From the NCBI GenBank assembly GCA_964407715.1, contig CAYOWP010000003.1, forward strand, positions 15,732-79,731: 64,000 nucleotides of DNA. The letters run 5' to 3'. Both the position numbers and the translations under genes were made by a program. Shown here piece by piece: positions 17,686-60,902 of the stretch. The DNA comes from an uncultured archaeon. GTDB taxonomy: Archaea; EX4484-52; JAADEF01. Numbering within the stretch: position 1 is the stretch's first letter; each line of letters begins with the position of its first letter. The notes beneath the pieces are model-generated. The model saw only the letters and a list, made by a program, of their open reading frames with translations. It had not been told where the DNA came from and ran no database searches.

Positions 17686-17944
17686 GGCATTGTCCAATAA
17701 TTCTTTATTGTTAAGCGGAAACATAACCTCTCAAAGAAGCGTATGAGAGCAGTTAACCCTTTGAATAGGGCTATGCTTCCCGTTAACAAATTGTCCAACA
17801 ATTTTTTAATGAGGATTTGTTAACGAAAAAATTCGTTCTTATCATTGCATTAGCTCTCTAAGGTTTGCTGCTCTGATGCGCTTCTTTAAAAGGCTATTTT
17901 TCCGCTTAACAAATTTTGTTAATAGGGAATTATTGGACAATGCC
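17686..17944. mobile_element. Family A MITE, full composite (about 259 bp: two half-elements head to tail), TIRs GGCATTGTCCAATAATT / AATTATTGGACAATGCC
   Basis: Terminal inverted repeats can be read directly. The internal junction aaattgtccaacaattttttaatgagga repeats the TIR. Flanked by cctttaaa / ctttaaaa. Confidence 0.75.
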
Positions 17945-18120: not shown

Positions 18121-18215
18121 GATTTGTTAACAAAAAATTTGGTTAACGAAAAAGATCACTATTATCAAAGATTTTGCAGCATGCTAACCCCTCTTAAAGG
18201 TTATTTCCATTGACG
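18121..18215. repeat. Family B module fragment
   Basis: tggttaacgaaaaag...ttttgcagcatgctaacc. Confidence 0.5.
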
Positions 18216-18304: not shown

Positions 18305-19042
18305 ATGAGAATCTTAGAGGAAAAATCAGCAAAGGATAAGGAATTAGTGATCAGTTTAGGTGGAAGTGTAATAACAAAAGATAACTATAGCAATGTGGAC
18401 AAAATCCTTTCCCAATTACTAACCTTATCACGAAAATATCATCTGTTTGTGGTTACTGGCGGTGGTACATTGGCAAGAAATTTGATAGAAATCGTCAAAA
18501 ATAAAAATAATATGTCATATAAAAAATACTACACACCCAAAAAAATAGAATCCATGAAGGAATATATATTGGATGAGATAGGAATCGCAGCCACTCATTT
18601 ACATGCAAAATTGTTTGCTGCGCTTTTAGGGTATAAAAAATATCCTGTACCACCTCAAATAAAAAATGCCATTAATTTAAGGAATCATTACAGAATTGTT
18701 TTTATGGGAGGCACATTACCAGGAAGATCAACTGACACAGTTGCTGCAGAATTAGCAGCAAAAGTAAAAGCAGAATGCTTAATCAATGTAAGTGATATAA
18801 AAGGAGTATACGATAAGGATCCTGACAAGCATAAAGATGCAAAGCTTTTAAGGAAAATATCATATGAAGAATTATGGAAAATTATAAAACATTATCCTCA
18901 ATCACCAGGTGAATATAAGCTCTTTGATCACAAAGCATTAGAAATCGTTAAAAAACATAGAATACCTGTCAAGTTCGTTCATTTTGAAGATATCTCAAAC
19001 TTTGATGATGATAATATAGGGACATTGGTTTGTAATAGCTAA
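18305..19042 (+). CDS. pyrH: Uridylate (UMP) kinase, archaeal type (amino-acid kinase fold)
   Basis: VVTGGGTLARNLIEIV and GGTLPGRSTDTVAAELAA match the archaeal PyrH motifs VVVGGGKLAR / GGTHPGHTTDAVAA. Confidence 0.8.
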   Translation: MRILEEKSAKDKELVISLGGSVITKDNYSNVDKILSQLLTLSRKYHLFVVTGGGTLARNLIEIVKNKNNMSYKKYYTPKKIESMKEYILDEIGIAATHLHAKLFAALLGYKKYPVPPQIKNAINLRNHYRIVFMGGTLPGRSTDTVAAELAAKVKAECLINVSDIKGVYDKDPDKHKDAKLLRKISYEELWKIIKHYPQSPGEYKLFDHKALEIVKKHRIPVKFVHFEDISNFDDDNIGTLVCNS

Positions 19043-21352: not shown

Positions 21353-21501
21353 GGAATTGTCCAATAATTTTTTAATGAGAATTTATTAACGAAAAAATTC
21401 GTTCTTACAATCGCATCAGCTCTACAAGGTTCGCTACTCTAAGCGCTTCTTTAAGAGGCTACCTTTCCGCTTAACAAATAGAGAATTATTGGACAATGCC
21501 T
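21353..21501. mobile_element. Family A MITE half-element (about 149 bp) with 8-bp TSD tctaacat
   Basis: TIRs ggaattgtccaataatt / aattattggacaatgcc; flanks ...ctctaacatt | element | tctaacatc... Confidence 0.75.
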
Positions 21502-23396: not shown

Positions 23397-23405
23397 GTTA
23401 TCACC

Positions 23406-23738
23406 TTAATAAGGTATGGGTGTTAAATCTATGGTGACTTCAACATTGCTATTGTTTAGGGTTAGATTGAAAGTACTTTCCTCATATGCTTTGTCATGGA
23501 GAAAAGTTTTGTTGATATAGCTCTCTAATTTGTCTACTACTCCATAAGTTACTTTTTGGATGGAGACTTTTACTTTATCGCAGTTAACAGGTAAGTCCTG
23601 TTTTTCTGCTGATTCTGAGATGCTCCTTATGAATGATTTGAACCACCCACTATATAGCGCAGCTATAGCAGTAACAAACACAACAAGAAGCACAGCTGAG
23701 ATGGTTATGGATACTGCTTTTTTTGTTTTAGTTCTCAT
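23406..23738 (-). CDS. Small N-terminally anchored protein with a possible class III (archaeal type IV pilin-like) signal peptide
   Basis: MRTKTKKA|VSITISAVLLVVFVTAIAALY fits the [KR][GA][AV][ST] + hydrophobic pattern. Confidence 0.4.
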   Translation of the reverse strand: MRTKTKKAVSITISAVLLVVFVTAIAALYSGWFKSFIRSISESAEKQDLPVNCDKVKVSIQKVTYGVVDKLESYINKTFLHDKAYEESTFNLTLNNSNVEVTIDLTPIPY

Positions 23739-23778
23739 AAAGAGTAATTATGTATCATAAAGGTTTATAAAGATTTTG

Positions 23779-34957: not shown

Positions 34958-35836
34958 TCATGGATACCTTTCTAATATCTCGAAATCTTCCATTTTTCCA
35001 TCGCTATCTCTGTCAACTCCTTCAATAATTATGTATGCTTCATCACGGCTCATAATTTCATCATAAATGGATTTAAATGCATTTATTGAGATTTCTGTAG
35101 AAATTATGTTAATACCGCTCAAAAGAACATAAGGCACTTTATTAGCGATAATCTTGCATATAAGAGCCATGCTCTCTTCATTATATTGATTTTTTGTGAT
35201 CGAAGATCTTATACCTCTATAATGCACTTCCTCATCATAATATACTTTCATCTTTTTGTTTAATTTATAAGTGAGCATATTGGTTAATGGACCTCCTATC
35301 ACAAAAACATATGTTCCATCTTTAATATCTTCCTCACTGAATAAAGTATCAAAAGTAACATCTATGTTCCATCCTTTGCTTCCAAGAAAACTTCCCAATA
35401 CACCTGCTAAATATCCGTCTCTTGCACGAAGATTGAACTTGCCATGTGCATCTGGGGATCCAACCACTATAATTCCACGAAGCAATGATCCTTCTGAAAT
35501 AGGTGCCTTGCTTTTAAATTCATCATTGAGAAATAAAACGAGTGCATCTGCATCAAAGGAATATCTTTTCTCCTCAAAATTTCTTATACGAGTCTGATTT
35601 TTAAGATGCACCAATCTTGCTTTTTCTAGCTTTCTAAGGTGGTAATATATTGAGAAAACGTCCTCCTTCATTATAGATGCTATTTCTTCTCCTGATAATA
35701 ACTCATGCTTAGATAGCAGTTCTAAGATTCTTATTCTTTTAAGATTTGAAACCTCCTTTATCTGTGCCTCATCAATTATCTTCCCTCTAAATACATACCT
35801 TTTCCCCTTCTCCTCATAATAAAAAAGATTTGCCAT
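34958..35836 (-). CDS. Winged-helix (ArsR-like) transcriptional regulator with a C-terminal domain of unknown function
   Basis: RIRILELLSKHELLSGEEIASIMKEDVFSIYYHLRKLEKARLV. Confidence 0.55.
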   Translation of the reverse strand: MANLFYYEEKGKRYVFRGKIIDEAQIKEVSNLKRIRILELLSKHELLSGEEIASIMKEDVFSIYYHLRKLEKARLVHLKNQTRIRNFEEKRYSFDADALVLFLNDEFKSKAPISEGSLLRGIIVVGSPDAHGKFNLRARDGYLAGVLGSFLGSKGWNIDVTFDTLFSEEDIKDGTYVFVIGGPLTNMLTYKLNKKMKVYYDEEVHYRGIRSSITKNQYNEESMALICKIIANKVPYVLLSGINIISTEISINAFKSIYDEIMSRDEAYIIIEGVDRDSDGKMEDFEILERYP

Positions 35837-35912
35837 ATCATTTAAATTTATTTTTAAACATTTTAAATATTTTTATGTTTAGAAGTTTAGAATCAAATCA
35901 CCTTTAAAAAAA

Positions 35913-36565
35913 GGTTAGTTGCTTCAATGCGGTTTTGATAGCAATATTTCCCGTTAACCATGTTCTTATTTTGGAAAATATGGTTAAAGGGAAGCATACC
36001 ATCTCAATAGCGCGTTAGAGCAGCTAACCTTTCTAATGGATTAGTGAGCAGCTAACCTTTAATTAGGTTAGTATGCTGCAATGTGGTTGTGAAAGCGATA
36101 TCTTCCCGTTAACCATATCATTTATTTTAAAAAATGGTTAAAGGGAAACATACCTCTCTCATTCAGCACATTAGAGCAGCTAACCTTTTTATGCGGTTAC
36201 CATGCTTCAAGACCTTAGTGATAGACGATTTCTTCCCGTTAACCATGTTCTTATTTTGGAAAATATGGTTAAAGGGAAGCTTACCCCATCAACAGCACAT
36301 TAGAGCATCTAACCTATTGCAAAGGGTTACCATGCTACAAAACCTTTGTGAAAGAGATTTCCTCCCGTTAACCATATTTCAAAATAAAAATTTGGTTAAC
36401 GAAACACCTACCCATATACCCAAAGCGCATTACAGCATCTAACCTGTTTAAGCGGTTAGCATGCTCTAAGAGCTGTGGTAATAAGGGAATTCTTCCTGTT
36501 AACCATTTTAAAAATGGTTAGCGAGATATATACTAATTCATTTTGCGTATCAAATCATCTAACCT
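35913..36565. repeat. Family B palindromic-module array (about 5 units); two units carry near-identical loops
   Basis: ttcccgttaaccatgttcttattttggaaaatatggttaaagggaagc occurs at 35948-36000 and again at 36233-36285. Confidence 0.8.
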
Positions 36566-36656: not shown

Positions 36657-37238
36657 ATGGGACATAAAATATTATGGCATCCTGCGAAGTTTATAGATGA
36701 GAGAACAAAGAAAGATTTTGCAAGAGATGGCTATTGGTTCAGTTTATGGAGCAGCATAATTGTAGGGCTAACAGTAATCTTGTTATCTCTAATATTTACA
36801 AAAAGCGGATATTATGTAGAAGAGCTAACAATAAAAAAAGGGATAGTCATTTTTCTTGTATCATTCTCAGTGTATTATCTTTTAAACATATTGAGCGCAT
36901 TTCTCACCCGTGAAATTGTTGGAATGCTAAAAAAGGATATTCTCTTTTATAAAGCATTAGCTGCAGTATCATATCCTTATTTCCTTTTAAGTGTTGGCTT
37001 TGCATTAATGACAATCTTCGCGATTTTCCCTGGAATCAATATACTAACCCCTATAATAGGGATAATATTCATTGCAAGAAGTTATGGAATCTATATTAGA
37101 TTTTTACATGAATATGCTAAGTTGGACAATATAGAGGCATATGTTGCAAGTGTTATCCTGATAAGTGCATTAACATTTGGATTCATCATTGGAGTAAACA
37201 TCTTATCTGCTGTTCCAGGAAATGTATTTGGCATGTAA
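36657..37238 (+). CDS. Yip1-like polytopic membrane protein
   Basis: 193 aa with about 5 TM segments and a short hydrophilic N-terminus. Confidence 0.45.
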   Translation: MGHKILWHPAKFIDERTKKDFARDGYWFSLWSSIIVGLTVILLSLIFTKSGYYVEELTIKKGIVIFLVSFSVYYLLNILSAFLTREIVGMLKKDILFYKALAAVSYPYFLLSVGFALMTIFAIFPGINILTPIIGIIFIARSYGIYIRFLHEYAKLDNIEAYVASVILISALTFGFIIGVNILSAVPGNVFGM

Positions 37239-37302: not shown

Positions 37303-39876
37303 TTATCTATATTCCTCTCCCCTCCATTTATCAAGTCTTCCCTTTTCACGAGCAGCGCTACCCAAAAATGTATGTGTCTCCTCTGGATGAAGAAGCATAC
37401 CCTCAAGTGGATCATATGCATGCTCTATAATTACTCTTTTTTGCTCAGCAAGTAATGCCTCATTTATACCATAGAACTCTGGTGGTAATTTATCTGGAGG
37501 AATATCATTCTCCAAAGCAATCACCATATTCCTAAACACTAATGCACTTTGATAAATCCCATAACTCCCCATTTCCCATATAAAATATGCATCCTTCATA
37601 CCCTTCTGCCTCAAAAGATACATCCATTCGTATAATGTATACATCTCCTCATTTAACATAAACAACGGCCCATGTTGCCCACCATAGGGTCTTGGAGCAT
37701 TAACATGTAGCATCCTTATATACTTAGCCTCTCCATCATCTAATGTTTTCATATCTTCAACAGGGTCTATTAAATTAAGGGAAAGATGCTCAAAATCCAT
37801 AGTATAAGCAAATAAATCCTTATATGGTCCTTGAGACCTTGGAATGATATCCTTATCAGGATTCTCAAGCAATTTTGATGCATATTCAACTACGCTCTTA
37901 ATTAGTATTATATGATCCTTTGCTTTCATAATTCTCAATCTACCTACTAAGCTCTCTCTAGAAGGCTGGTCAGTTTCTATAAACATCATAATTGGCTTTC
38001 CATCTGTTTTGCTTCCACCACGTTCTATATAATCCCATACACTATCATTATTAAATCTAACACCTTCAATATTAAGGGCCCCTATTTTATATAACCACTC
38101 TGGTAATGTATCCATCGCCCACTCATCCTTAATAAATAAATGCCCTTGGATGTATTTTGCTGCTACTGCAGTAACAATATCCTCAGCAATCTGCAATGGT
38201 GTTCTTTGCTCCTTTGTGTAGATATAATCCTGAAATTCTCTTGTATATTTGTTAAGCCTATCCTTAAATGGCTTCTCTCCCATCCCATCAACATATTCAT
38301 AGAAATCCTTCATTCTTTTGAACCCAAAATTTGTAGCTAAGATAACATCATCTGGGTCATATGCATCATCTATCTTAGTTTCGTATCTTTTTCCAACGAT
38401 TTCTTGCCATAAGTAATCCTTATACTTATACATAAATTTAGCTGTTAAGATATATGCAACCTCCTCGCTTGCTTCACATCCTTTAATTACTGTCCAATAT
38501 TCAAATGCGTCATCATAATCCATTCCTGATCGCGTAACAATATATAATGCTCTAAGTGCTTTTCTCTCCATGTGTGTTATATCAAACTGGTAATATTCTT
38601 TATGTGTACCAGAAGATGCAATCTCCATTTCTTTTGAGTTAACTAGATTTGTTAGATGAATTTGTATAGTATGGATATTCAATCTATCTATATCCTCTGT
38701 TACAGGGTCAAATTCTGGAAGTATCCTTGGTAATAAGTTCCTTAATATTCCAAACTCCTCTGGTGCAAGAGATAACATGTGAAGTTTATCAGTGGTATCA
38801 ACTTTCTTTGCTTTCTTTTCTATATCTTCTAATATCTCAATACTTCTTTCTAATATGCTCTTACTATCTTCCAATCTCTTCTTATCTTCCTCTGATATTC
38901 CTTTTCTCTGTAGCATCTTAATAACATTCAAAAGATCCTTCTTTAATGCCTCTTTATGGTCTTCTATATTCTTAATCATTCTCTTTATATAATATCTCAA
39001 GATTTTCTTTCTAACATTCTCACGAAGCTCCTGTGCTCTCTTTATTCCCTCATCAAAGCTATCAAAATAATAGAAGTAAAGTCCTATTTCTGGTTCAATA
39101 GCCTGACCTCTCATCTCAAAAAATATACTTAGGAATCTTGCCTTAAAATAATCCTTAAACCTAAAATTCTTTAGAGGTTTGTATATTTTTCTATAGCATG
39201 GATCAACAAAATAATTATATGTTTTACCTTCAAATATTGTTTTTTCCTCTCCATCCAATTGCTTTATCCATATCCCCAAAGGAATACCTGTGTATGAAAA
39301 AAGCTGTCCTCTCATATAATATCTCTCCTCTCCTGAAATACCAAACACTATATTAGGTCTTGGAGAGGAAGATGAGTGAAATAAAAAATATTTTGCTCCT
39401 AATATATCACCAGCCGCATATGCTGATCTCTGTATGCTTCTGTGATGTAATGTCCATTGATTTGCATATGCTATACATAAATCCACGCCTGCCTCTCCAA
39501 CAACAGGAGCATGTAATCCAACTTCCAATCCCTGATATCTCTTTGCCTCTTCTATCATCTTCCAGAGATATCTCTCGTTAATTTCTGATATTGCCTCAAA
39601 GTCTAATTGAATAAATTCAAATCCATAAAGTGCACCTTTCATATATTTTCTCATTAATCCCAAATCCTTAAATCCTTCAGGGGATCTTTTTATTTGAGCA
39701 AATCCAGGAGTTACCCCAATTATATATCCCACAGGTCTATTGAGATCATCCCATCTCTTTTCTTTTTTATAATATAACCAATTAAAATCTATCTTTGCAT
39801 TTTGATCTTTACTTCCTTTCTCCTGCTCTTTCTTGTTTTTATTTTTTTTATTGAACAAAAAGGAAAAGATACCCAT
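37303..39876 (-). CDS. Large hypothetical protein (857 aa). The N-terminal ~280 aa may form a TIM-barrel-like domain (LEVGLHAP motif); the C-terminal ~570 aa are unassigned
   Basis: Long uninterrupted ORF with no clear family signature. Confidence 0.55.
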   Translation of the reverse strand: MGIFSFLFNKKNKNKKEQEKGSKDQNAKIDFNWLYYKKEKRWDDLNRPVGYIIGVTPGFAQIKRSPEGFKDLGLMRKYMKGALYGFEFIQLDFEAISEINERYLWKMIEEAKRYQGLEVGLHAPVVGEAGVDLCIAYANQWTLHHRSIQRSAYAAGDILGAKYFLFHSSSSPRPNIVFGISGEERYYMRGQLFSYTGIPLGIWIKQLDGEEKTIFEGKTYNYFVDPCYRKIYKPLKNFRFKDYFKARFLSIFFEMRGQAIEPEIGLYFYYFDSFDEGIKRAQELRENVRKKILRYYIKRMIKNIEDHKEALKKDLLNVIKMLQRKGISEEDKKRLEDSKSILERSIEILEDIEKKAKKVDTTDKLHMLSLAPEEFGILRNLLPRILPEFDPVTEDIDRLNIHTIQIHLTNLVNSKEMEIASSGTHKEYYQFDITHMERKALRALYIVTRSGMDYDDAFEYWTVIKGCEASEEVAYILTAKFMYKYKDYLWQEIVGKRYETKIDDAYDPDDVILATNFGFKRMKDFYEYVDGMGEKPFKDRLNKYTREFQDYIYTKEQRTPLQIAEDIVTAVAAKYIQGHLFIKDEWAMDTLPEWLYKIGALNIEGVRFNNDSVWDYIERGGSKTDGKPIMMFIETDQPSRESLVGRLRIMKAKDHIILIKSVVEYASKLLENPDKDIIPRSQGPYKDLFAYTMDFEHLSLNLIDPVEDMKTLDDGEAKYIRMLHVNAPRPYGGQHGPLFMLNEEMYTLYEWMYLLRQKGMKDAYFIWEMGSYGIYQSALVFRNMVIALENDIPPDKLPPEFYGINEALLAEQKRVIIEHAYDPLEGMLLHPEETHTFLGSAAREKGRLDKWRGEEYR

Positions 39877-40549: not shown

Positions 40550-41203
40550 TTATATCATGAAAAATACAGCAATCAATAGCAGACCAGCTATTAAATGCAA
40601 ATATCTTATATTTTTTTCTCTCCACATAAGAATCTTTCGTGGCATTGTACCAAATCCTATAATCAAAGTAATAAGTATCATAGGTAATACAAAAATCAAG
40701 TTATAATATGCTAAATATATAAATTTGGACAATGAGAATCTCATCAATATCAATGCACTAAGATAAGGTCCTGAAGAACAAGGCAACAATAGAAGAGAGC
40801 ACAACATAGCTACAGGAATAGCCATAAAAGGACTTGTAGTAGCTTTTATAACTTTCTGCGCTATTGGTCGAAAACGCATAGGCATCTCCATAGCTATAAA
40901 GCCAGGTTTATATCTGAAGTATGCCTGTATTTCCATAAAAATCATTACAAGCAATAGAATTCTCAATATCCACTTAAGTATGCTTTCCATTCCTATCACA
41001 TATATTATGCTTAAAATCCCAAGACCATAAAGAAAGTACATAACATATATTGTCAATGTGAAAAATATACCTCCTATTATTGCACTTCTCCTTCCTTTAG
41101 TTATTAAAAGAGCTGATAGTAAGAGAGCTTGCACTGCTATCGTACAAGGATTAACTGCATCAACCAACGCAAGAAGAGTAATATTCAAAAATTCATCAAA
41201 CAT
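40550..41203 (-). CDS. ccdA: CcdA/DsbD-family transmembrane disulfide electron transporter
   Basis: Two conserved Cys in TM helices (VDAVNPCTIAV and LLLPCSSGPYLS). Confidence 0.7.
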   Translation of the reverse strand: MFDEFLNITLLALVDAVNPCTIAVQALLLSALLITKGRRSAIIGGIFFTLTIYVMYFLYGLGILSIIYVIGMESILKWILRILLLVMIFMEIQAYFRYKPGFIAMEMPMRFRPIAQKVIKATTSPFMAIPVAMLCSLLLLPCSSGPYLSALILMRFSLSKFIYLAYYNLIFVLPMILITLIIGFGTMPRKILMWREKNIRYLHLIAGLLLIAVFFMI

Positions 41204-41337
41204 ATATAAAATTCCCTCTTATGCTATTTTAAAAAATTTTTTAATAACCTCATCTAAAAACTCTCTTTTTCTCTAAAAAATAAAGTAGCAATATATTCGT
41301 AGAAGCAACATCATCTTAACTAAAATTTTTATTAAAA

Positions 41338-42185
41338 TGGTTAACGAAAAGCAAATCTTGTCAATAGCACATTACACCAGCTAACCTCAAAAAAGGTACC
41401 ATGCTACAAAGCCTTCGTTGGAGGAATTCTTCCTGTTAACCATATCTCTTAATCTCTTAAAAAATAAAAAATTGGTTAACGGGAAACATAATCTCTTCAT
41501 TCAGCATATTGAAGCAGCTATCCTTTTTAGAAAAGGTTAGCATGCTACGAAGCATTTGTGAGAGCGATATCTTCCCGTTAACCATTATTTTAAAATAATT
41601 GGTTAACGGGAAACATACATTATCATAAAGCCATATCAGAGCAGCTAACCTTCAAAAGATGGTATCATGCTCCAAACCCTTTGGTAAGGCGATATCTTCC
41701 CGTTAACCAATTATTATTTTAAAAATTTGGTTAAGGGAAAAATAGCCAATTCATTTAGCATATCAGAGCATCTAACCTTCTTAACCGGTTAGAAAGCAGC
41801 TAACCTTTAAAAGAGGTTAGCATGCTGCAAAACCTTTCGGAGAGATATTTTCTCCCCTTAACCATATCATTTATTTTAAAAATGGTTAAGGGGAACCATA
41901 CCTTTCTCCTTCAGCATATTGAAGCAGCTAACCTCATGAAGGCGTTTTGAAAGCAGCTATCCTTTTTAGAAAAGGTACCATGCTGCAAAGCCTTTCTGAG
42001 AGCGATATTCTCCCATTAACCAATTTTTATTTTTTTTTTAAAATTAGTTAACGGGAAAACATACCTCATCGAGAACCACATTCCAGCAGCTATCCCTTTT
42101 TAAGAGGTTAGTGAGCCTCTAACCTTTCTAAGCAGTTATCATGCTACAAAGCCTTTGGTAATAGCGATTTTCTTGCGTTAACCAG
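41338..42185. repeat. Family B palindromic-module array (about 6 units). This is the clearest example of the alternating-orientation BIME-like architecture
   Basis: Each unit reads TGGTTAACGGGAAACATAcc-N12-CAGCATATTGAAGCAGCTAACC-linker-GGTTAGCATGCTGCAAAGCCTTT-NN-GAGAGCGATATCTTCCCGTTAACCA. Units are separated by AT-rich palindromic spacers. Confidence 0.85.
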
Positions 42186-42255
42186 TTTTCATTTATTTAT
42201 TGGAGATAATTGAAAGAGAAACTTTTTTAAATCCAAAAAATATATGGAAATATTA

Positions 42256-42314
42256 GCGATGATTAAGCCGTCCCAGGATGATAAAAAGATGATTATTTAG
42301 GGTAGCTCATGAGC
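42256..42314 (+). ncRNA. Candidate C/D-box sRNA-like element (about 59 nt)
   Basis: GCGATGATTA...GATGAT...GATTAT...CATGAGC; same organisation as the neighbouring candidate. Confidence 0.25.
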
Positions 42315-42349
42315 AGTACAATATCTTTTTCAAGAAATCTCATTAAAAA

Positions 42350-42407
42350 GGGCGATGATTAAAAGACCGTAAGATGATGTGTGATTATGTGAACACCCAA
42401 TGAGCCC
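42350..42407 (+). ncRNA. Candidate C/D-box sRNA (about 58 nt) with a GGGC/GCCC terminal stem
   Basis: gggc-GCGATGA(C-box-like)-ttaaaagaccgt-...-AUGAUGU(C'-like)-...-AUGA(D-like)-gccc. Confidence 0.3.
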
Positions 42408-42451
42408 TCTTAACAATATTTTTAAACACAAATTAAGGATAAATATATTAT

Positions 42452-43186
42452 ATGGCATTGCCTAAAAGACAAATAAAAGATGAAGAGCAAAGAAAAATTT
42501 TTGGAAAGATTTTTGATAATTTGGTAATCCAGGATCTCTTTAAATTAAAAGCAAAGGGCATATATGATACCTATGGAGGACTCTTAGAAGAGGGAAAAGA
42601 AAGCAGAATACTCTTGGTTTATAAAGATGAAGAGCCAAGAATTATAAAGATATACAAAATAGAAGCCGGGAACTTTAAAAATATGCTTCGATATCTTGAA
42701 GGAGATGAAAGATTTAAAAAGATTAGAGAGAGAAGGAGAGATATAATATATGCATGGTGTAAAAAGGAATATCATAATCTACTTATAGCAAAAAAAGTTG
42801 GTATATCTTCACCAGAACCTTATGATTATATTCATAATATAATTGCTATGGAGATGCTCGGAGAAAATGCTCCATATCCGCAGCTTAAGGATATCGTATT
42901 ATCAAAACCTGAAAAAGTTCTTAAAAATATATTATCTCAAATTGAAATCTTACTAAAAAAAGGAAAACTTGTACATGGAGATATAAGCGAGTTTAATATT
43001 CTTATAGATTCAAAAGAAAGACCCTATTTTATAGATTTTGGTCAAGCAGTATTAACATCACATCCATTTGCCAAAGAATTCCTTAAAAGAGACATAAAAA
43101 ATTTAATAAATTATTTTTATAAAGAATATAATATTGAAAATGATGCTGATGAAATATATGCAAGGATGTGTAACGGTGTATTTTAA
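42452..43186 (+). CDS. rio1: RIO1-type serine/threonine protein kinase
   Basis: LVHGDISEFNILI, IDFGQAV and flanking RIO motifs; no N-terminal wHTH, so Rio1 rather than Rio2. Confidence 0.85.
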   Translation: MALPKRQIKDEEQRKIFGKIFDNLVIQDLFKLKAKGIYDTYGGLLEEGKESRILLVYKDEEPRIIKIYKIEAGNFKNMLRYLEGDERFKKIRERRRDIIYAWCKKEYHNLLIAKKVGISSPEPYDYIHNIIAMEMLGENAPYPQLKDIVLSKPEKVLKNILSQIEILLKKGKLVHGDISEFNILIDSKERPYFIDFGQAVLTSHPFAKEFLKRDIKNLINYFYKEYNIENDADEIYARMCNGVF

Positions 43187-46685: not shown

Positions 46686-46948
46686 GACATTGTCCAATAA
46701 TTCTTTATTGTTAAGTGAAAACATAACCTCTCACAGAAGCGCATGAGAGCAGTTAACCCTTTGAGTAAGGCTACGCTTCCCGTTAACAAATTATTTTGAA
46801 TAGATAAAAATTGTTAACGGGAAGAAATCGCTATTACTACAGGTTTTGTAGCATGTCATCTTTAAGGTTCGCTACTTTAATGCGCTTCTTTAAAAGGTTA
46901 CTTTTCCGCTTAACAAAATTTGTTGATATGGAATTATTGGACAATGTC
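46686..46948. mobile_element. Family A MITE, full composite (about 263 bp), with 9-11 bp TSD cacattcaa(ga)
   Basis: Left flank ...acacattcaa|gacattgtcc...; right flank ...ggacaatgtc|cacattcaagag. Confidence 0.8.
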
Positions 46949-46963
46949 CACATTCAAGAGTCA

Positions 46964-47497
46964 TATTACAGCAGATAACCTTTTTTTGGCATATTACTTG
47001 CATTAACTAAACTCTTTATTTGGAAAATGGTTAAGGTAAAATATTCTCTCAATCAAGCACATTAGAGGGCAGATGATCTCTCTCTGAAAAATGATAGTGC
47101 GAGAAAAAACCTTCATAATGAGATCCTTAATAATTTTAGAATTTATTTTATAAAATCTGGTTAACAGGAAAATATCGCTAACATAAAGATTTTGCAGCAT
47201 GGCATCTTTTTAGGTGGTTAGCCGCTCCAATGTAATTGCTTTAGTGGTATGTTTCTCGTTAACCAAATTTTTATTTTGAAAGATGGTTAACGCGAGGAAA
47301 TCGTTTTCACAAAGGCTTTGCAGCATGCTAACTTTTTTTGGTTATCTGCTTTTGATATGGATCATCTCCTGTTTAATAAAATTGGTTAAGAAAAATTTAA
47401 TCTCCTTCTTAGGAGTATTACAGCAGCTAACCTTTTTTTAGCAGGTTATCATGCTGCAAAAACTTTCGTAATAATGTTTTTTTCTTCTGTTAACCAG
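46964..47497. repeat. Family B palindromic-module array (about 4 units)
   Basis: ggttaacgcgaggaaatcg..., tttgcagcatgctaac..., cagcagctaacc... Confidence 0.7.
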
Positions 47498-47575: not shown

Positions 47576-47589
47576 TTGAATTTTCTTTT

Positions 47590-47673
47590 GTCGGGGTCGC
47601 CTAGCCTGGTATGGCGCCAGCCTGCTAAGCTGGTTCCCGTAAGGGATCGAGGGTTCGAATCCCTCCCCCGACG
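47590..47673 (+). tRNA. tRNA-Ser (anticodon GCU) with a long variable arm
   Basis: GTCGGGG acceptor stem, anticodon loop CUGCUAA, variable arm TTCCCGTAAGGGATC, T-arm GAGGGTTCGAATCCCTC, 3' CCCCGAC-G. Confidence 0.85.
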
Positions 47674-47680
47674 TTTTTTG

Positions 47681-47838
47681 GGCATTGTCCAATAATTTTT
47701 TGATGAGGATTTGTTAACGAGAAAATTCGTTCTTACAATCGCATTAGCTCTACAAGGTTCGCTACTTTAATGCGCTTCTTTAAAAGGTTACTTTTCTGCT
47801 TAACAAAATTTGTTGATATGGAATTATTGAACAATGCC
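47681..47838. mobile_element. Family A MITE half-element (about 158 bp) inserted into the T-tract 3 nt downstream of tRNA-Ser, with 8-9 bp TSD (c)gttttttg
   Basis: ...acgttttttg|ggcattgtcc ... ggacaatgcc|cgttttttgag. Confidence 0.8.
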
Positions 47839-50261: not shown

Positions 50262-52742
50262 ATGGAACTCGAAAGAAAGGCGAGGATATTTATATTTTTG
50301 ATTATAATGTTAATGATACCTATAAAGAATACTCTTGCTATTTCTTCAGATTCAAATACTTTAAATTTATTTTTAGATGAATACTCTATAGAATTATGCC
50401 CCTATACTACAAAAATGATTACTGGATTTGTTGAAAATAATGGAAATCAAAATGTTGAAGTAAAGTTATATTCCAATAGCAAGTGGATTACAATTGCTCA
50501 AGATTCTTTTGTTTTATCTCCTCATGAAAAGAAATACATCAATATCTTTATAACTCCAACCGATGAGGCAAGAGTTGGAGAATATAGAGCAAAGATATAT
50601 GCTTATACAACCCAGGAAGAAGATGTGGAGGAGATAACAATAAATATACTAGATTGTAATGAAATTTCTTTAGATATTGAGGATACAACTATAGATGCTT
50701 GTATTGGGGATCATTTGAAGATACCATTCTACATAAAAAATGAAGGAAAGGTCACAGAGTATGTTACTTTGAGTGTTGACAAAGGAAAACTTGATTTTTA
50801 TGAGACGGTATTGGATAGCTATGAAAGTGATAAAAACTTCCTCTTTTATAAAGTAACAAAGGATTATGATGTAATTACTCTAAAGGCAACCTCTAAGAAT
50901 AGTTTTGCAAATGCAGAAAAAAAGATATATATAAATGGTAGAAATTGTTATAACTTTGACATTACGGTAATACCTCAAAGTGTAGATATATGTATGAAGG
51001 ATTATGCTGTCTTCGATATCTATCTAAGAAATACGGGAGAGGAAGAGGACACAATACACCTAAAAGCATCTTCAGGAATATTATCAAAGAATGTCATAAC
51101 TTTAGAACCTGAAGAAGAATACATAGTAAAATTAAAAGTTAAACCGAACAAAACAGGAGAGAGTGCAGTGAAGATAGAAGCATGGGATTCAGTAAATTAT
51201 CAATTTAGAGACATTCAAATAACAGGAAAAAGATGTAGCAACAATGCAATGATAATTGTTCCTGAAAGTATGGATGTATGCAGAGGTTCAGCAGCTAGAT
51301 ATATAATAGGAATAAGGAATTTGGGAGAGGTAGATGAGAGTTTGGAGATAACAAGTAACATTGGAGAATTTGATGAATCTGAAGTAGAAATAGAGCCGGG
51401 TACAACAGTCTATAGAGAAATATATATAAATACGGATGATATGGATTATGGTACACATGAAATAAAAATAAACTTAACAAAAAATGAGAGAGTTATAGAT
51501 AGTATCACAGCGACATTAAATGTTAAGAATTGTTATAATGGAGAAATATATACCCATTATAAGATTGTTAAAGCATGCAAATTTACGCCAAGTAGACCTA
51601 TAGATGTAATTGTAAAGAATACTGGTGAAAAAGAGGAAACATATACCTTAAAAGGTATGTTAGGAAGCTTTAATGTCCAAAGGATAAAGTTATCTCCAGG
51701 AGAAGAAATTGTAGTGAAATATAGAGTGAATATTTCCCAAGATATTGCAGAGGGTATTGTAGAGGATATACTATCCTTGAAAGGAGATCATATGAATAAA
51801 GAGAAAACAATTAAATTGGATGTTGAGGTATTAAAGGAAAATATGTGTTCTAATTTTAGCGTAAAAATAGAACCTGAAAGAATCTATGCCCAAGAATATA
51901 AAGGATATATATACAGAATAAAAATAAAAAATAACGGATATGCGGAAAATACATTTACAGTCAAATTAGATGATGACTATGGAATAATATATATAGAACC
52001 AAAGAAAATAACTATTGATAGTGGTGAAGAAGGTGTTATATTCCTATATGTGGCACCACATTCCAAGCTTCCAAATAAAGTATATGAGATAAAAGGAAAA
52101 GTGATAGATAAATTTAATAATGAAAAGAATTTCATGGCATTATTGGATTTAAATGTAGAAAAAACCTACTTTATTGAAGGAGCCCAAGAAGATAAAATCA
52201 TTACAAAAGTAAAAAATTTGGATAAAGAGAAAACATATTATGTAAGTAAAGACAATGCTACAACCTTAGAGATAGAATATATTATGGAAGGAAGAAAAGA
52301 AAAAGAAGAGATATTGTTTGTAGGTGGAAGTTTCATTATACAAATAGGGGATGAGCTATACGAAGATAAAAATCCCGAAATTGGAAAGAGAACTTATATA
52401 TTAAAAGCTAATAATAAGACATATAGAATAACAATAAAATTTGTGTATGTGGATAACGCAAATAGCGAATATAAATTCAAAATAGAAGATATAACAATAG
52501 AAAAAGAAAGGAAGCAGCTTTATCCTCCTATTGAGACAGAAAAGAAAAAAGAAGTCCTATGGAAGAACTGGAGAATATTGATACCTATATTCGTATTATT
52601 TATAGGGATCGCGCTTATATGTTATGATTTAATTTTTGCAAGATGGAGCAGCAGAAAAAAAGAGAACAAAAAGAAAAGGAGTACCAAGAAGGAAGCAAAA
52701 AAGAAAGAAATAGAAAAATTAAAGAAAATAATCGAGAAATGA
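50262..52742 (+). CDS. Large cell-surface protein with several Ig-like modules containing Cys pairs, a C-terminal TM anchor and a Lys-rich cytoplasmic tail
   Basis: Signal peptide; repeated roughly 100-aa modules (DCNEISLDIEDTTIDACIGD..., NGRNCYNFDITVIPQSVDICMKD..., GKRCSNNAMIIVPESMDVCRGS...); C-terminal ILIPIFVLFIGIALICYDLIF followed by a K/E-rich tail. Confidence 0.65.
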   Translation: MELERKARIFIFLIIMLMIPIKNTLAISSDSNTLNLFLDEYSIELCPYTTKMITGFVENNGNQNVEVKLYSNSKWITIAQDSFVLSPHEKKYINIFITPTDEARVGEYRAKIYAYTTQEEDVEEITINILDCNEISLDIEDTTIDACIGDHLKIPFYIKNEGKVTEYVTLSVDKGKLDFYETVLDSYESDKNFLFYKVTKDYDVITLKATSKNSFANAEKKIYINGRNCYNFDITVIPQSVDICMKDYAVFDIYLRNTGEEEDTIHLKASSGILSKNVITLEPEEEYIVKLKVKPNKTGESAVKIEAWDSVNYQFRDIQITGKRCSNNAMIIVPESMDVCRGSAARYIIGIRNLGEVDESLEITSNIGEFDESEVEIEPGTTVYREIYINTDDMDYGTHEIKINLTKNERVIDSITATLNVKNCYNGEIYTHYKIVKACKFTPSRPIDVIVKNTGEKEETYTLKGMLGSFNVQRIKLSPGEEIVVKYRVNISQDIAEGIVEDILSLKGDHMNKEKTIKLDVEVLKENMCSNFSVKIEPERIYAQEYKGYIYRIKIKNNGYAENTFTVKLDDDYGIIYIEPKKITIDSGEEGVIFLYVAPHSKLPNKVYEIKGKVIDKFNNEKNFMALLDLNVEKTYFIEGAQEDKIITKVKNLDKEKTYYVSKDNATTLEIEYIMEGRKEKEEILFVGGSFIIQIGDELYEDKNPEIGKRTYILKANNKTYRITIKFVYVDNANSEYKFKIEDITIEKERKQLYPPIETEKKKEVLWKNWRILIPIFVLFIGIALICYDLIFARWSSRKKENKKKRSTKKEAKKKEIEKLKKIIEK

Positions 52743-52772: not shown

Positions 52773-53460
52773 TGGTTAACGGGAAAAATAACCTCTCTCT
52801 TTGGGTATTGAAGCGCCTAATCCTTTTGAAAGAGGAACTATGCTGCAAACCAAAGTGTAGAGTGATATCCTCCCGTTAACCATTTTTTATTTGGAAGATG
52901 GTTAAGGGAGACATTCCTTATCAATAGCACATTAAAGCAGCTAACCTTTCTAACCGGTTAGGAAGCAGCTAAACCTTTTTAAGTGGTTAGCATGCTGCAA
53001 GACCTTCTGGAAAAGCGATTTCCTCCCGTTAACCAAAATTTTTATTTTTTGAATTGGTTAACTGGAAGCATACCCAATGAACAAGCCATAGCAAAGCAGC
53101 TAACCTTTTTAAGCGGTTTAGAAGCAGCTAAACCTTTTTGGAAAGGATGCCATGCTGCAATATCCTTTGTGTTAGCGATTTCCTCGCGTTAACCAGATTT
53201 TTATTCAAAATAATTGGTTAACGGGCAGCATACCTTGTCAAGAAAGCACATTACAGCAGCTAACATTTTTAAGCGTTTTGGAAGCAGCTGACTATCTCAT
53301 GGGAAGTTAACATGCTCAAAGATCCACTGTAATGGTTATCTCTTCTGTTAACCTTTTCTTTGAAATAAAATAAAGATCTGTTTAAGTGGAATAATAACAA
53401 ATGAATGAGCCATCCTATAGCAGTTAATCTTTCTGAGCAGATAGGAAATAGCTATCCTTG
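52773..53460. repeat. Family B palindromic-module array (about 5 units)
   Basis: tggttaacgggaaaaataacc..., gcagctaacc, ggttagcatgctgcaa, ttcctcccgttaacca. Confidence 0.8.
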
Positions 53461-53498: not shown

Positions 53499-53805
53499 GG
53501 CATTGTCCAATAATTCTTTATTGTTAAGCGGAAACATAACCTCTCACAGAAGCACATGAGAGCAGTTAACCCTTCATAGCGATTATGAAGCAAGTAACCT
53601 TTCAACAATGTTAACCTGCCCCAAAACCCTTTGAATAGAGCTACGCTTCCCGTTAACAAATTGTCCAATAATTTTCTGATGAGGATTTGTTAACGAGAAA
53701 ATTCATTCTTACGATTGCATTAGCTCTATAATGTTCGCTACTTTAATGCACTTCTTTAAGAGGTTACTTTTCCGCTTAACAAATAGAGAATCATTGAACA
53801 ATACC
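53499..53805. mobile_element. Family A MITE, full composite with an internal family B insert (about 307 bp), flanked by a direct repeat of at least 10 bp, tcaattgcat
   Basis: ...caatacctcaattgcat|ggcattgtcc ... gaacaatacc|tcaattgcattaaac. Confidence 0.8.
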
Positions 53806-54380: not shown

Positions 54381-55772
54381 TTAAGAAGAGGCAAAATACC
54401 TCTTACCTTTATTATCTTTGCCTTCTAAGGTTGCATTATCCAATTTTAAGTCGCCTATGACAGATATCTTCGGTATTATCTCATATCTAAAAATCCTCAC
54501 TTCTCCTGGTTTTAATGTACCTATTCTCCATTCAATTATATATCCAGTCTTTGTTTTATGTATCTTAGAAGGTTTTGGAAGTATGGAAGATTCATCTATA
54601 TTAAAGATTCCTTTAATATGATCTCTTAATATCACCTCTTTTAGCTCCTTCATTTTATGATTTGTTATCTTTAAAATGATGTTATATCTATGTCCTTTGA
54701 TATAGAACTCTTTTATAATCTTTGGTGATGTAAAGGAAACAAATAGCAATACAAGTAAAGTGAGAAGAATAAGTAGGATCACATATAATATCCAATAATT
54801 AATCTGAATTCCAAAGGTACATTCCTCATTTACATCAAGATCACAAAGAATAACATAGCGGCCATTCTTCTTTATAGGACTCATACCCTTAAAATTATAT
54901 ATCCATATAAATCCTCGTGTTCCAACATCATAGGTATATGTAACAGGAGTATTTCCCTTATTGATTACTTTCATTTCGATATATTTATAGAATGCATTTT
55001 CTTTAACATTAGAGTATTCCTTTACATTAAAAGTCCTTTTAACTTTAAAAGTATGTCTATTTTCATTTATCTTTTTTCCTCTATCATCATATATCTCTAC
55101 AATTATCTCATAGTTTCCTGGTTTTCTTTGTGGATCCACATGAATATCAGCAACAATAATATCTGATTCACCAACATTTAATGAAATTGGCTCATATTTT
55201 CTATAAAATCCAATTTTAGGCACTTTTATTATTACTGAATATTTTTCAGCATCTAGTTCACCAATATTTGATATGTGAACATATATTGTTTGGGTTTTAT
55301 TTGCTTCTATTTCCGGAAACTTTACTCCAATCTTAGTAATATCTAAAAGAGGTCTATCGAGAATATAAAGAGATTTTTTAATTGTTGCTAATACTTCTTT
55401 TGTTATGGAATTTTTTACATATACATAGAAATAATATCTCCCTCCTTTAACTAAAGAAGGAATAGTTATCTCCATATCCGTCTTAGCTGTAGAATAAGGA
55501 GATATATGAATAGGATTTTTATTCCACGTAAACCATCCTTCTCTTCCTAATGCATAAATATCTATGTACACATCTATAGATGCTGAGTTATTATTCAATA
55601 TAGATATATTTCCTTTAATTATATCCCCTGGATAAATCACATCTCTATCCAAGTTAACTTCTAATATTAAATTTTCTGTTGATGTGGATTGTGCAAATAC
55701 AGATGGAAAGATAATAAAACACATAATTAAGAAGATATTAATATATTTCCGGATATTTATATCACAAACCAT
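54381..55772 (-). CDS. Secreted surface protein with a C-proximal TM helix and a cytoplasmic tail
   Basis: Signal peptide; TM LYVILLILLTLLVLLFVSF near residue 330. Confidence 0.55.
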   Translation of the reverse strand: MVCDINIRKYINIFLIMCFIIFPSVFAQSTSTENLILEVNLDRDVIYPGDIIKGNISILNNNSASIDVYIDIYALGREGWFTWNKNPIHISPYSTAKTDMEITIPSLVKGGRYYFYVYVKNSITKEVLATIKKSLYILDRPLLDITKIGVKFPEIEANKTQTIYVHISNIGELDAEKYSVIIKVPKIGFYRKYEPISLNVGESDIIVADIHVDPQRKPGNYEIIVEIYDDRGKKINENRHTFKVKRTFNVKEYSNVKENAFYKYIEMKVINKGNTPVTYTYDVGTRGFIWIYNFKGMSPIKKNGRYVILCDLDVNEECTFGIQINYWILYVILLILLTLLVLLFVSFTSPKIIKEFYIKGHRYNIILKITNHKMKELKEVILRDHIKGIFNIDESSILPKPSKIHKTKTGYIIEWRIGTLKPGEVRIFRYEIIPKISVIGDLKLDNATLEGKDNKGKRYFASS

Positions 55773-55879: not shown

Positions 55880-56110
55880 ATGTTGCCCAATAATATATTT
55901 TGAAAATTTTGTTAACGGGAAACAATGCTATTCAAAAGATTTTAGAGTATGCTATCTTTTTCAATGGTTACCTGCCGTACAGTATGTTTTTAATATGCCT
56001 ATGTCTCCCCTTAACCATTTTTATCCTTTTTAATTTGGTTAATGAGAAACTTTCGCTTTCACTAAGGTAGTGCGGCATAGTAACCTGGTTAAAAATATTG
56101 GACATCACTA
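55880..56110. mobile_element. Degenerate family A-like element with decayed TIRs (catgttgcccaataat ... aatattggacatc)
   Basis: Internal family B-type cores (gttaacgggaaacaa, tctccccttaaccat) lie between TIR-like ends. Confidence 0.5.
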
Positions 56111-56163: not shown

Positions 56164-58149
56164 ATGGTTCTTACATATAAAGAAATAGTAGATAAATTAG
56201 ACATAATAGAGAGGATATCATCTAAAATGGAAAAAACCCAAATATTAATAGAAATGCTCAAAAAAGCTGAAGAAGAAGAGATGGAATATCTAATTCTTTT
56301 CGTGCTTGGGAGAGTATTTCCAGAGCATATCACAAAAGAAATAGGCATAAGTCAAAACTTATTAATGAGGGGAATATCAAAAGCATATGGATATGACATA
56401 AAAGAAATTGAGAATCTATGGAAAATAAAAGGAGATATAGGTAAAGTAGCAGAAGAAATCTCGCATAAGAGGAAGCAAACATCTTTATTGATATCAGGAA
56501 TAACTTTAAAAGAGATAATAGAAACATTAAGAACAATAAGTAATCTTGAGGGAGAGGGGAGCATTGATAAGAAGATCAGCTTGGTTTCAGGATTGTTTAT
56601 GAAAGTAAAAGGAAATGAAGCAAAATACATTGCACGATATATTTTAGGTGATATGAGGATTGGTGTAGCAGAAGGTATTGTAAGAGATGCCATAATAGGA
56701 GCATATTTCTCACAATTTTATTGGCTCTCACTATTCACAACCCAAAATGTTGGCGTAACAGATGAGTTCATACTTAAATACTGGAAAAATAAAAAATTTC
56801 TGATTTCTAAAGAAGCAGAAAAAGGAGGAAATATAATAGCATTAATAAAGAAAATTGCTAAAGAAGTAGTAACTCTATCTGAGAATGAAATTAAAAATAT
56901 TTCTTCATTTCACTGGTCCAAAATGGATATTGATGTAGTGATAGTAGCATCATCTGAGCTCGGGAACATATTAAGAGAAAAATACACGAAATTATTAGAT
57001 GAAAGTTATGCTTTGATTAATGATTATCCTGAAGTAGCAAAGATAGCATATAAGGAAGGAGAAGAAGGTCTAAAGAAAATAATACCAATTATATTTAGAC
57101 CCTTAAGAGTGATGCTTGCGCAGAGAGCTCATAACATAGAGGAAGCTTTTCAGATAGTTGGCAGACCTGCTGCTTTTGAATATAAGTTTGATGGATTTAG
57201 GGTACAAATACATAAAAAGGGCAAAAAAATAGAGATTTACACAAGAAGATTAGAAAATGTGACAAAGCAATTCCCAGATATCATAAAATATGTGCAGGAG
57301 AACATCAAAGCAGAAGAATGTATAATAGAAGGAGAAGCAATAGGATATGATCCAATGACAGAAAAATGGCTTCCTTTTCAAAAGGTATCCCAGAGAATAC
57401 GCAGAAAATATAATGTTGAGGAAATGGCAAAAAAGATACCTGTTATGGTTCATCTTTTTGATATAGTATATCTAAATGGAAATAAACTTATATATCACTC
57501 ATTTAAAGAAAGAAGGGAAATGCTAAGGAGCATTGTAAATGAGGTTCCAAAGCAGATAATGCTTGCAAAACAAATAATTACTGATAAAGTTGAGGAAGCC
57601 CAAAGGTTTTATGATGAAGCACTCAAGAAAGGTAATGAGGGAATCATGGCAAAGAATCTAAATGCCCCCTATGAGCCAGGATTAAGAGTAGGAAATATGA
57701 TAAAGATAAAACCTACATTGGAAACACTTGATTTAGTGATTGTAGGAGCAGAATGGGGAGAGGGCAAAAGAACAGGATATCTCAGCTCATTTGAATTGGC
57801 TTGCATTGATGAAGATACAGGAGAATTTCTAACTATCGGAAAGTTAGGTACAGGAATAAAAGAGAAAGCAGAAGGAGGAGGAGTTAGTTTTGAAGATTTA
57901 ACAGAGCTTCTCAAACCACACATTGAAAAAGAGGAGGGAAGAATTGTAAAAATAAAACCATCTGTTGTTGTGGAAGTTGCATATGAAGAAATTCAAAAAT
58001 CACCTCACTATACATCAGGATATGCATTAAGATTTCCACGACTAGTAAGCATAAGAGATGATAAGTCACCACATGAAGTAGATACAATTGAAAGAGTTGA
58101 AAAAATATATGAGATACAAAGAGGAAGAGGATCCAATAAAGTTGCTTGA
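56164..58149 (+). CDS. lig: ATP-dependent DNA ligase
   Basis: EYKFDGFR adenylation motif I with the downstream ligase motifs. Confidence 0.9.
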   Translation: MVLTYKEIVDKLDIIERISSKMEKTQILIEMLKKAEEEEMEYLILFVLGRVFPEHITKEIGISQNLLMRGISKAYGYDIKEIENLWKIKGDIGKVAEEISHKRKQTSLLISGITLKEIIETLRTISNLEGEGSIDKKISLVSGLFMKVKGNEAKYIARYILGDMRIGVAEGIVRDAIIGAYFSQFYWLSLFTTQNVGVTDEFILKYWKNKKFLISKEAEKGGNIIALIKKIAKEVVTLSENEIKNISSFHWSKMDIDVVIVASSELGNILREKYTKLLDESYALINDYPEVAKIAYKEGEEGLKKIIPIIFRPLRVMLAQRAHNIEEAFQIVGRPAAFEYKFDGFRVQIHKKGKKIEIYTRRLENVTKQFPDIIKYVQENIKAEECIIEGEAIGYDPMTEKWLPFQKVSQRIRRKYNVEEMAKKIPVMVHLFDIVYLNGNKLIYHSFKERREMLRSIVNEVPKQIMLAKQIITDKVEEAQRFYDEALKKGNEGIMAKNLNAPYEPGLRVGNMIKIKPTLETLDLVIVGAEWGEGKRTGYLSSFELACIDEDTGEFLTIGKLGTGIKEKAEGGGVSFEDLTELLKPHIEKEEGRIVKIKPSVVVEVAYEEIQKSPHYTSGYALRFPRLVSIRDDKSPHEVDTIERVEKIYEIQRGRGSNKVA

Positions 58150-60644: not shown

Positions 60645-60902
60645 GGCTTTGTCCAATAATTCTTTATTGTTAAGCGGACACATAACCTCTCACAGAAGCG
60701 CATGAGAGCGGTTAACCCTTTGAATAGGGCTATGCTTCCCGTTAACAAATTGTCCAATAATTTTTGATGAGGATTTGTTAACGAGAAAATTCGTTCTTAC
60801 GATTGCATTAGCTCTACAAGGTTTGCTGCTCTAATGGGCTTCTTTAAAAGATTACTTTTCCGCTTAACAAAATTTGTTAATAAAGAATTATTGGACAATG
60901 CC
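60645..60902. mobile_element. Family A MITE, full composite (about 258 bp)
   Basis: ggctttgtccaataattctttattgttaagcgga ... tttccgcttaacaaaatttgttaataaagaattattggacaatgcc. Confidence 0.75.

Follow-up and report, generated by a model that had tools for sequence, protein, structure and literature searches.

The repetitive extragenic palindromes (REPs) of bacteria, which cluster into bacterial interspersed mosaic elements (BIMEs), are 20-40 nt in length and G+C-rich (PMC2817692, PMC3116915), and a 2025 survey has described short REP-like palindromes in archaea (PMC12306157). MITEs (miniature inverted-repeat transposable elements) are known from archaea including Sulfolobus (SM1-SM4, 25-44 copies), haloarchaea and Desulfurococcus, and the pneumococcal elements BOX, RUP and SPRITE have also been described (PMC10969869). 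A 2024 census placed DPANN genomes among the MITE-richest, with up to 146 MITEs/Mb, and put the MITE share of a genome at ~1.23% at most, in bacterial endosymbionts (PMC11602168). Here we describe a family of large hairpin repeats in a 64,000-nt stretch of DNA from an uncultured archaeon (contig CAYOWP010000003.1, positions 15,732 to 79,731; hereafter the window), in which a tract at 41338-42185 had been flagged. We propose, with a probability of roughly 0.65, that a lineage-specific, non-coding hairpin repeat family of the selfish or formerly selfish MITE or REP/BIME kind has colonised the intergenic DNA of one DPANN population. In the literature on archaeal repeats and MITEs we found no description of such arrays, and nothing here requires a new category of system.

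When the window was searched for the end motif TGGTTAACGGGAA with up to two mismatches, 59 matches were found compared with 0.89 expected from dinucleotide shuffles, and no shuffle reached 59. The heptamer GGTTARC was found 77 times versus 7.4 expected. Copies of TGGTTAACGGGAA alternate between the + and - strands, with interior distances of 79-86 nt and 107-118 nt and gaps of 15-30 nt, and in Tandem Repeats Finder these arrays appear with periods of 127-160 nt and 74-79% identity. An nhmmer profile hidden Markov model (HMM) made from 14 units gave 81 raw hits in the window, placing every tract of the original prediction and further sites besides, and 177 non-overlapping hits in the ~195 kb of genome that we inspected (the window plus other contigs and loci of the same population from metagenomes). 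The repeats total 5,736 bp, or 9.0% of the window, close to the ~6 kb and ~10% first estimated, and 53% of its non-coding DNA (DNA outside tRNAs and open reading frames (ORFs) of at least 100 aa). Of the 18 intergenic gaps that exceed 150 bp, 13 contain repeats, and there is zero overlap with genes, so that the intergenic confinement originally claimed holds throughout. DPANN genomes are regarded as streamlined and gene-dense, yet a single family makes up about half of the non-coding DNA here. The repeat density of the window exceeds what a recent census found in 8,220 archaeal genomes, and its coverage of 9% and ~27 bounded units per 64 kb are several-fold over the census maxima (PMC11602168).

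The repeats take two forms, type A and type B. The type-A unit is an imperfect palindrome bounded by TGGTTAAC...GTTAACCA, 105-114 nt in length, or 130-144 nt with an extra inner hairpin. Length classes are discrete (~80, ~96, 105-114 and 130-144 nt, the last two with 46 and 32 copies), and the additional inner hairpin of the long class is ~28 nt (CTAACC-n-GGTTAG). Alignment of 54 full-length short units gave the consensus TGGTTAAsGGGAAnCATAnCCTnTTAAnnAAGCACATTAnAGCAGCTAACC-TTTnnAAGA-GGTTAGCATGCTGCAAAACCTTTGTnATAGnGATnTCTTCCCGTTAACCA, which for the ~110-nt module may be abbreviated as TGGTTAAsGGGAA...AGCAGCTAACC-loop-GGTTAGCATGCT...GATnTCTTCCCGTTAACCA. The TTAA and several other columns are invariant across these 54 diverged copies, and each unit holds four to six copies of GGTTA(A/G)C in inverted pairs. 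Type-A units have true 13-bp terminal inverted repeats with ends sharp at TGG/CCA, and like Correia and ERIC elements they fold into long hairpins. Because the arms are consistently unlike, with CATAnCC on one side and GATnTC on the other, the unit is asymmetric and hence oriented, and the nhmmer model separates the two orientations well (for example, 88 versus 31 bits). The spacers between units (n=87) are mostly 18-21 nt and 89% A+T; since the T-run precedes the A-run in all 39 spacers having both, a T-tract follows every hairpin on either strand. Neighbouring units share the same orientation in 94 pairs and differ in 21, and array orientation takes no single direction along the window.

The arrays are thus head-to-tail series of an asymmetric palindrome that read as alternating half-modules. 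The original prediction had described ~55-bp alpha and beta modules in strict alternation. The alternation was found, together with the AT-rich palindromic linkers between half-modules, but the modules are the two arms of one asymmetric imperfect palindrome rather than separate entities, the gap between the conserved blocks of a half-module measures ~28 nt instead of ~20 nt, and the alternation is not strict, as the arrays at 5586-5976 and 47158-47496 mix orientations. The flagged array at 41338-42184 (+ strand) consists of six units, all alpha->beta, bounded by inverted TGGTTAACGGGAA...TTCCCGTTAACCA. Short units occupy 41338-41442, 41473-41584 and 41600-41709, and long units 41728-41864, 41883-42022 and 42045-42184. 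The array is flanked by the divergent genes 40550-41203 (-) and 42452-43186 (+, RIO1 kinase). The gap between these genes (41204-42451) is the longest intergenic gap (1,248 bp) and houses the largest array; the cumulative GC skew has its minimum there and gene orientation flips from mostly minus to mostly plus, with no orc1/cdc6 gene nearby.

Like the REPs and BIMEs of E. coli and Pseudomonas (including REPIN-RAYT systems), these are intergenic imperfect palindromes of high copy number, alternating in linker-joined arrays with no target-site duplications and no adjacent transposase. The match to BIMEs drawn by the original prediction therefore stands as to grammar (alternating palindromic half-modules, with the loop and the 18-21 nt spacer as linkers). 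As to membership it fails on size, tag and position: units here are 110-140 nt and the arrays 39% G+C, the type-A consensus TGGTTAA...TTAACCA has no GTAG/CGTC at its ends, the host is archaeal, and there is no sequence similarity. REPs have a cognate REP-associated tyrosine transposase (RAYT), a single-copy Y1 HUH enzyme that REPs usually flank; no RAYT was found in the 195 kb inspected. The fixed ends with variable internal modules and the stable hairpins are shared with pneumococcal BOX, and BOX, RUP and SPRITE elements likewise cluster, insert into one another and in some cases are terminator-like. BOX differs in having no sequence relationship to the present repeats, another module size and order, a bacterial host and no regular head-to-tail arrays with T- and A-runs. 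Regularly spaced palindromic repeats in an archaeal genome also recall CRISPR arrays. However, the spacers are conserved A/T runs of 18-21 nt, the units exceed 100 nt, more than 15 arrays occur in 64 kb, and no cas domain was found in the window; CRISPR was therefore rejected.

Type-B elements carry the scars of insertion. Their core motif ATTGTCCAATAATT occurs 16 times in the window versus 0.18 expected, and inverted pairs of it, when extended, form 17-bp terminal inverted repeats (GGCATTGTCCAATAATT / AATTATTGGACAATGCC). The elements are non-coding and 142-342 bp in length, with 15 bounded copies and one remnant in the 195 kb, and each holds between one and three hairpin units of a variant type, whose ends are TTGTTAAGCGGAA...TTCTCGTTAACAA and which most commonly measure 96 nt. 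Nine of the 15 elements are flanked by 9-bp target-site duplications matching at 8 or more of 9 positions, compared with 0 of 210 mismatched-pair controls, and the duplicated 9-mers are unique sequence. Copies with such duplications in the window are a 142-bp element at 21356-21497 (perfect, CTCTAACAT), a 257-bp element with two hairpin units at 46689-46945 (CACATTCAA), a 152-bp element at 47684-47835 (CGTTTTTTG) and a 301-bp composite at 53502-53802 (CTCAATTGCAT, 9/9). The composite at 17689-17941, which has three copies of ATTGTCCAATAATT (+,+,-) and units of ~83 and 96 nt, shows a degenerate duplication (CTTTAAA, 7/9), and the 252-bp composite at 60648-60899 no recognisable one (4/9). Elsewhere in the population, duplications of ATTATAAAA and AAGTTTGCA flank the elements on contigs L043 and L044. 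The duplications around elements bounded by inverted repeats point to staggered-cut transposition, and type B is a canonical MITE in every property that could be tested. It resembles the Correia elements of Neisseria, Sulfolobus SM1-SM4 and the elements of MITE-rich DPANN genomes in size, terminal inverted repeats, duplications, lack of an ORF, multiple copies, intergenic position and lineage specificity. Since the duplications of composite copies flank the outermost ends, the hairpin units travel as cargo of type B. Type-B units are most alike among themselves (86-92% identity), which suggests that this part of the family is the younger one or is still active.

The 152-bp element at 47684-47835 lies within a T-run a few bases past the 3' end of tRNA-Ser(GCT) (window 47589-47835). 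Because it was inserted in this adjoining T-run, duplicating CGTTTTTTG, the likely terminator of the tRNA gene now appears to be split by the element.

Types A and B are linked, as some type-A arrays terminate in a type-B terminal repeat (window 4271-4284; L030 9531). Type A differs from described MITEs in lacking duplications and in forming long same-orientation arrays, and the family as a whole in having no known parent insertion sequence (IS). The presence of scarred and scar-less, BIME-like forms of one hairpin module in a single genome offers a natural comparison, and could show how arrays of the REP/BIME type arise from, or alongside, ordinary MITEs.

How the arrays form can be judged from the relationships among their units. 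For 62 of 67 units the closest relative is found in another array, and mean identity is 70% within arrays versus 68% between them; this nearest-neighbour analysis rules out recent local tandem duplication as the origin of the arrays. No target-site duplications were found around type-A units or whole arrays, only A/T runs, and together with the uniform orientation within arrays this disfavours independent random insertion. A piggyBac-like duplication of TTAA in a TGGTTAACCA target was also rejected, since insertion-free GGTTAACC sites occur only inside units and never in the A/T spacers. The arrays are dynamic, in that whole units and inner modules are gained or lost between populations. In two samples the array upstream of the 23S rRNA gene differs by one unit plus spacer (~122 bp) and by a 28-nt inner module; the two copies are 99.1% identical on the 23S rRNA side and their breakpoints lie in the common TGGTTAACGGGA end. 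We propose that a DDE-type transposase, making staggered cuts, would have inserted type B, acting in trans from an element that lies beyond the 195 kb, whereas a type-A array may be seeded by one insertion and then grow, shrink and swap units by homology at the common ends, through unequal exchange, slippage or ectopic gene conversion, the last of which would import units from other arrays.

The repeats are not evenly distributed with respect to genes. In the window and the companion loci they are present in 14 of 21 gaps between divergent genes, against 13 of 40 between co-directional and 3 of 10 between convergent genes (divergent versus the rest, Fisher p=0.009). Arrays lie ~50-270 nt from start codons, can begin 5-30 nt past stop codons (7605, 5586 and 52773), and are found as well upstream of the 23S rRNA gene and next to tRNA genes. 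E. coli REPs and BIMEs occur in transcribed 3' or inter-cistronic regions and are rare between divergent genes; the enrichment of the present repeats between divergent genes is the opposite of this 3'-end bias. As a side effect, the arrays probably act as terminators or insulators of transcription, and may start it as well, because on each strand a T-tract comes after the hairpin and the spacers look like archaeal TATA boxes. In archaea the chief intrinsic termination signal is the oligo-T tract, and transcription there would be expected to stop at a hairpin that has a T-tract on both strands. Effects on transcription are thus likely from the sequence, probably at many promoters, those of rRNA and tRNA genes included.

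Several observations weigh against a colonising family of the MITE or REP/BIME kind. With Pfam we scanned almost all ORFs of 100 aa or more in the window, and with NCBIfam ten ORFs that had little or no Pfam annotation, and found no transposase, integrase, RAYT, Y1/HUH, TnpB or Cas domain among them, in agreement with the original prediction that no transposase gene is nearby. In the 195 kb there was neither an IS-like multi-copy ORF nor a type-B end pair enclosing an ORF; a mobilising enzyme may be encoded elsewhere in the genome or on another replicon, or may have been lost. The loci outside the window were picked for containing arrays, and the density there is biased accordingly. Type-A units lack target-site duplications, singly or around whole arrays, so that any mechanism for their insertion is conjectural. 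The copies are old, with nearest-neighbour identity of 75-88%, yet several columns are invariant in 54 copies, which could reflect host-level selection rather than requirements of mobility, and uniform orientation without within-array similarity is not fully explained by the proposed dynamics. We give some weight, though well short of even odds, to the idea that type-A arrays are the archaeal counterpart of REPs and BIMEs, that is, large palindromes domesticated and maintained by the host, copied without duplication by an enzyme neither RAYT nor DDE-type or spread by recombination only, and put to use by the cell, in the promoter-side intergenic regions of a thermophilic DPANN archaeon with a reduced genome, as protein-binding platforms, insulators or terminators that act in both directions. 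Somewhat less probable is that the repeats are simply cis elements serving the host, either bidirectional terminators and insulators or arrays of binding sites for a protein recognising GGTTA(A/G)C. The hairpin followed by a T-run on both strands of every unit, the A+T-rich spacers with the T-run first, the excess of GGTTARC, the invariant columns and the arrays that begin 5-30 nt past stop codons all agree with such a role. However, the enrichment in promoter-side divergent gaps, and not at 3' ends, disfavours termination as the primary reason for the arrays, up to nine successive HMM hits per array are excessive for termination, and the number of units differs between populations. The relatives whose FttA is 81% identical do without arrays and have compact spacers, and no candidate binding protein was found. 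A bacterial promoter and terminator scan was set aside, since hairpins of 110 nt lie beyond its limit on loop size and sigma-70 rules are not meant for archaea.

A mobile origin through a different enzyme would be a REP/RAYT-like or IS200/IS605-derived element (palindrome-associated transposable element, PATE), in which a single-copy HUH tyrosine transposase encoded at another place in the genome copies type-A units in the form of single-stranded hairpins. A PATE has a conserved 4-5 nt target directly 5' of it, sub-terminal hairpins and no terminal inverted repeats. The sharp ends without target-site duplication and the clustering of hairpins in arrays of one orientation would fit, and only ~195 kb of the genome was inspected. 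This is improbable nonetheless, as the units have true 13-bp terminal inverted repeats, are three times the size of a REP and carry no GTAG/CGTC tag, their 5' flank is merely A-rich with no fixed target tetranucleotide of the kind conserved 5' of PATEs, no Y1/HUH protein was found among the window ORFs scanned, and arrays do not run in one direction across it. A shade less probable again is that the arrays are small RNA genes, with the spacer acting as TATA-like promoter and T-tract terminator and each unit yielding a ~100-nt hairpin RNA with a cellular role. Single units do fold as RNA far better than shuffles (z -4 to -6.7), the spacers are like the AT-rich promoter regions that precede tRNA-Cys and the 23S rRNA gene, and arrays are frequently found in gaps on the promoter side. 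On the other hand, both strands fold equally well, and default RNAalifold gave no consensus structure. In a covariation test on the 54-sequence alignment, with a relaxed consensus structure of 29 pairs and shuffled controls, 83.4% of cells were paired versus 83.5% in shuffles, and none of the covariation measures exceeded the shuffles. G.U-compatible mismatches were not enriched on the alpha->beta strand (82 versus 139 A.C), and in about half of the copies a G at position 8 of the left end opposes a right-end G, an uncompensated clash in the terminal stem. It is thus the consensus that is palindromic, while individual copies decay without compensation. Rfam gave only two tRNAs at the gathering threshold and nothing credible at E<=5, and the family is absent from close relatives. 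The lack of compensatory changes and of any Rfam match, together with equal folding on both strands, disfavours a selected RNA structure, and with it the original suggestion that the arrays are a source of structured RNAs; the Rfam search also rules out a tRNA-derived, rRNA-derived or other Rfam family. It is very improbable that the arrays arose just by local tandem duplication, in which a single ancestral unit at each site expanded like a satellite, without mobility. The periods of Tandem Repeats Finder, the uniform orientation and the unit-sized indel between two populations would suit it, but the nearest relatives lie elsewhere, the family is spread over at least 30 distinct gaps between genes, on many contigs, and type-B copies carry insertion scars. 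Duplication is largely refuted as the sole process, and likely contributes to changes in array length.

To place the family beyond the window, reference genomes, viral contigs and metagenomes were scanned with a pattern of the unit junction. The pattern was found in 18 stretches on 12 contigs of two Joint Genome Institute (JGI) metagenomes, Ga0190367 and Ga0190319. With one exception these contigs have no 40-mers in common with the window, and they have ~32% G+C and many units. Since separate contigs of the same population carry the family, it is genome-wide in this population and not restricted to the window. In 185,579 reference genomes the pattern gave chance single bacterial hits only, and three hits in the Chromatiales metagenome-assembled genome (MAG) JALTJZ01 (L004, L005, L007) were rejected as one identical ~200-bp multi-copy sequence that contains TTCCCGTTAACCA-N26-TGGTTAA by coincidence and is unrelated outside the motif. 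The pattern was absent from viral contigs, which gave chance-level single hits only for type-B ends, and nothing similar was seen in plasmid and phage collections. In the relatives with 81% FttA identity the syntenic loci (~38 kb) are compact, with no copy by motif or HMM. The repeat family is lineage-specific.

The host is an archaeon, because the window carries genes for FttA/aCPSF1, RIO1 kinase, a Dim2-type KH protein, ribosomal proteins, SecY and EF-1alpha, and also for family D DNA polymerase (small subunit), RFC and an ATP-dependent DNA ligase. It is a DPANN archaeon. The named relatives of its FttA are DPANN MAGs (Nanohaloarchaeota, Nanoarchaeota, Aenigmarchaeota and Micrarchaeota) at 50-70% identity, and the closest non-identical relatives, at 81%, come from MAGs and metagenome assemblies; the host itself was not present among the reference genomes searched. 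The G+C content of rRNA correlates with growth temperature, and the 60.8% G+C of the 16S rRNA gene on a companion locus against ~32% for the genome suggests a thermophile.

All tracts of the original prediction were borne out, at the HMM and motif bounds given here and above, and the type-B copies in the window and the site at 55910-56090 were additions to it. The array at 35895-36522 (+, ~5 units) lies between the divergent genes 34958-35836 (-, ArsR-type helix-turn-helix) and 36657-37238 (+), and its locus is 99.7% identical in a second metagenome (L039). An ORF at 36134-36442 (102 aa, ATG) wholly within this array is almost certainly spurious, and automated annotation would call such repeat-derived ORFs 'hypothetical proteins'. 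The array at 7605-8402 (-, 5-6 units) lies between the convergent genes 6824-7600 (+, DUF63) and 8481-10442 (-, FttA/aCPSF1). Logan contig L017 (SRR7051179, 2,221 bp), from a public short-read assembly of the same organism, is 99.9% identical to window 8201-10399, with an identical FttA, and ends inside this array. This suggests that the repeats fragment short-read assemblies, and such breakage may be why the genome is absent from reference collections. The array at 5586-6011 (+ - - -) lies between the co-directional genes 4345-5559 (+) and 6122-6811 (+). The array at 52773-53353 (+, 4 units) begins 30 nt past the stop codon of 50262-52742 (+), and that at 47158-47496 (- - +, 3 units) lies upstream of tRNA-Ser (47589-47674), with degenerate remains back to ~47020. 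A unit and a partial unit at 55910-56090 (-) stand between the divergent genes 54381-55772 (-) and 56164-58149 (+, DNA ligase). At 3913-4284 (-), degenerate type-A units (3913-4076) are fused to a type-B remnant with terminal repeats at 4170-4183 and 4271-4284, and a half-unit fragment at 18140-18208 (-) lies between tRNA-Cys and 18305-19042 (+).

Unannotated ORFs next to arrays resemble secreted or membrane proteins, and none was retained as a mobilising enzyme. No Pfam, NCBIfam or PDB match was obtained for the 404-aa ORF at 4345-5559, whose translation is without transposase features; the 463-aa ORF at 54381-55772 matches no family and seems to be secreted or anchored in the membrane. The phospholipase D (PLD)-like ORF at 6122-6811 was considered as a nuclease, but its hydrophobic mid-section resembles transmembrane helices and a lipid enzyme is likelier. 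Three large ORFs are without a Pfam family, namely 2-3856 (-, at least 1,285 aa), 37303-39876 (-, 857 aa) and 19039-20793 (-, 584 aa). They are typical lineage-specific DPANN proteins; the sole paralogue of 2-3856 is in L028 (22% identity), and an exact-protein lookup of the 857-aa ORF gave no record.

Customarily, an rRNA operon has the order 16S-23S. On L034 (738-5726; Ga0190319_1000355), however, the 23S rRNA gene is followed by the 16S rRNA gene on the same strand, and the ~560-nt AT-rich stretch between them probably carries a separate promoter. A seven-unit repeat array lies immediately upstream of the 23S promoter region. Finally, window 23035-23776 is duplicated at L043:1701-2436 (743 bp, 90% identity), including a 110-aa ORF whose protein is 98% identical, and beside this duplicate there are paralogous NosD/beta-helix surface-type proteins (window 21510-23396 versus L043, 39-55% identity).

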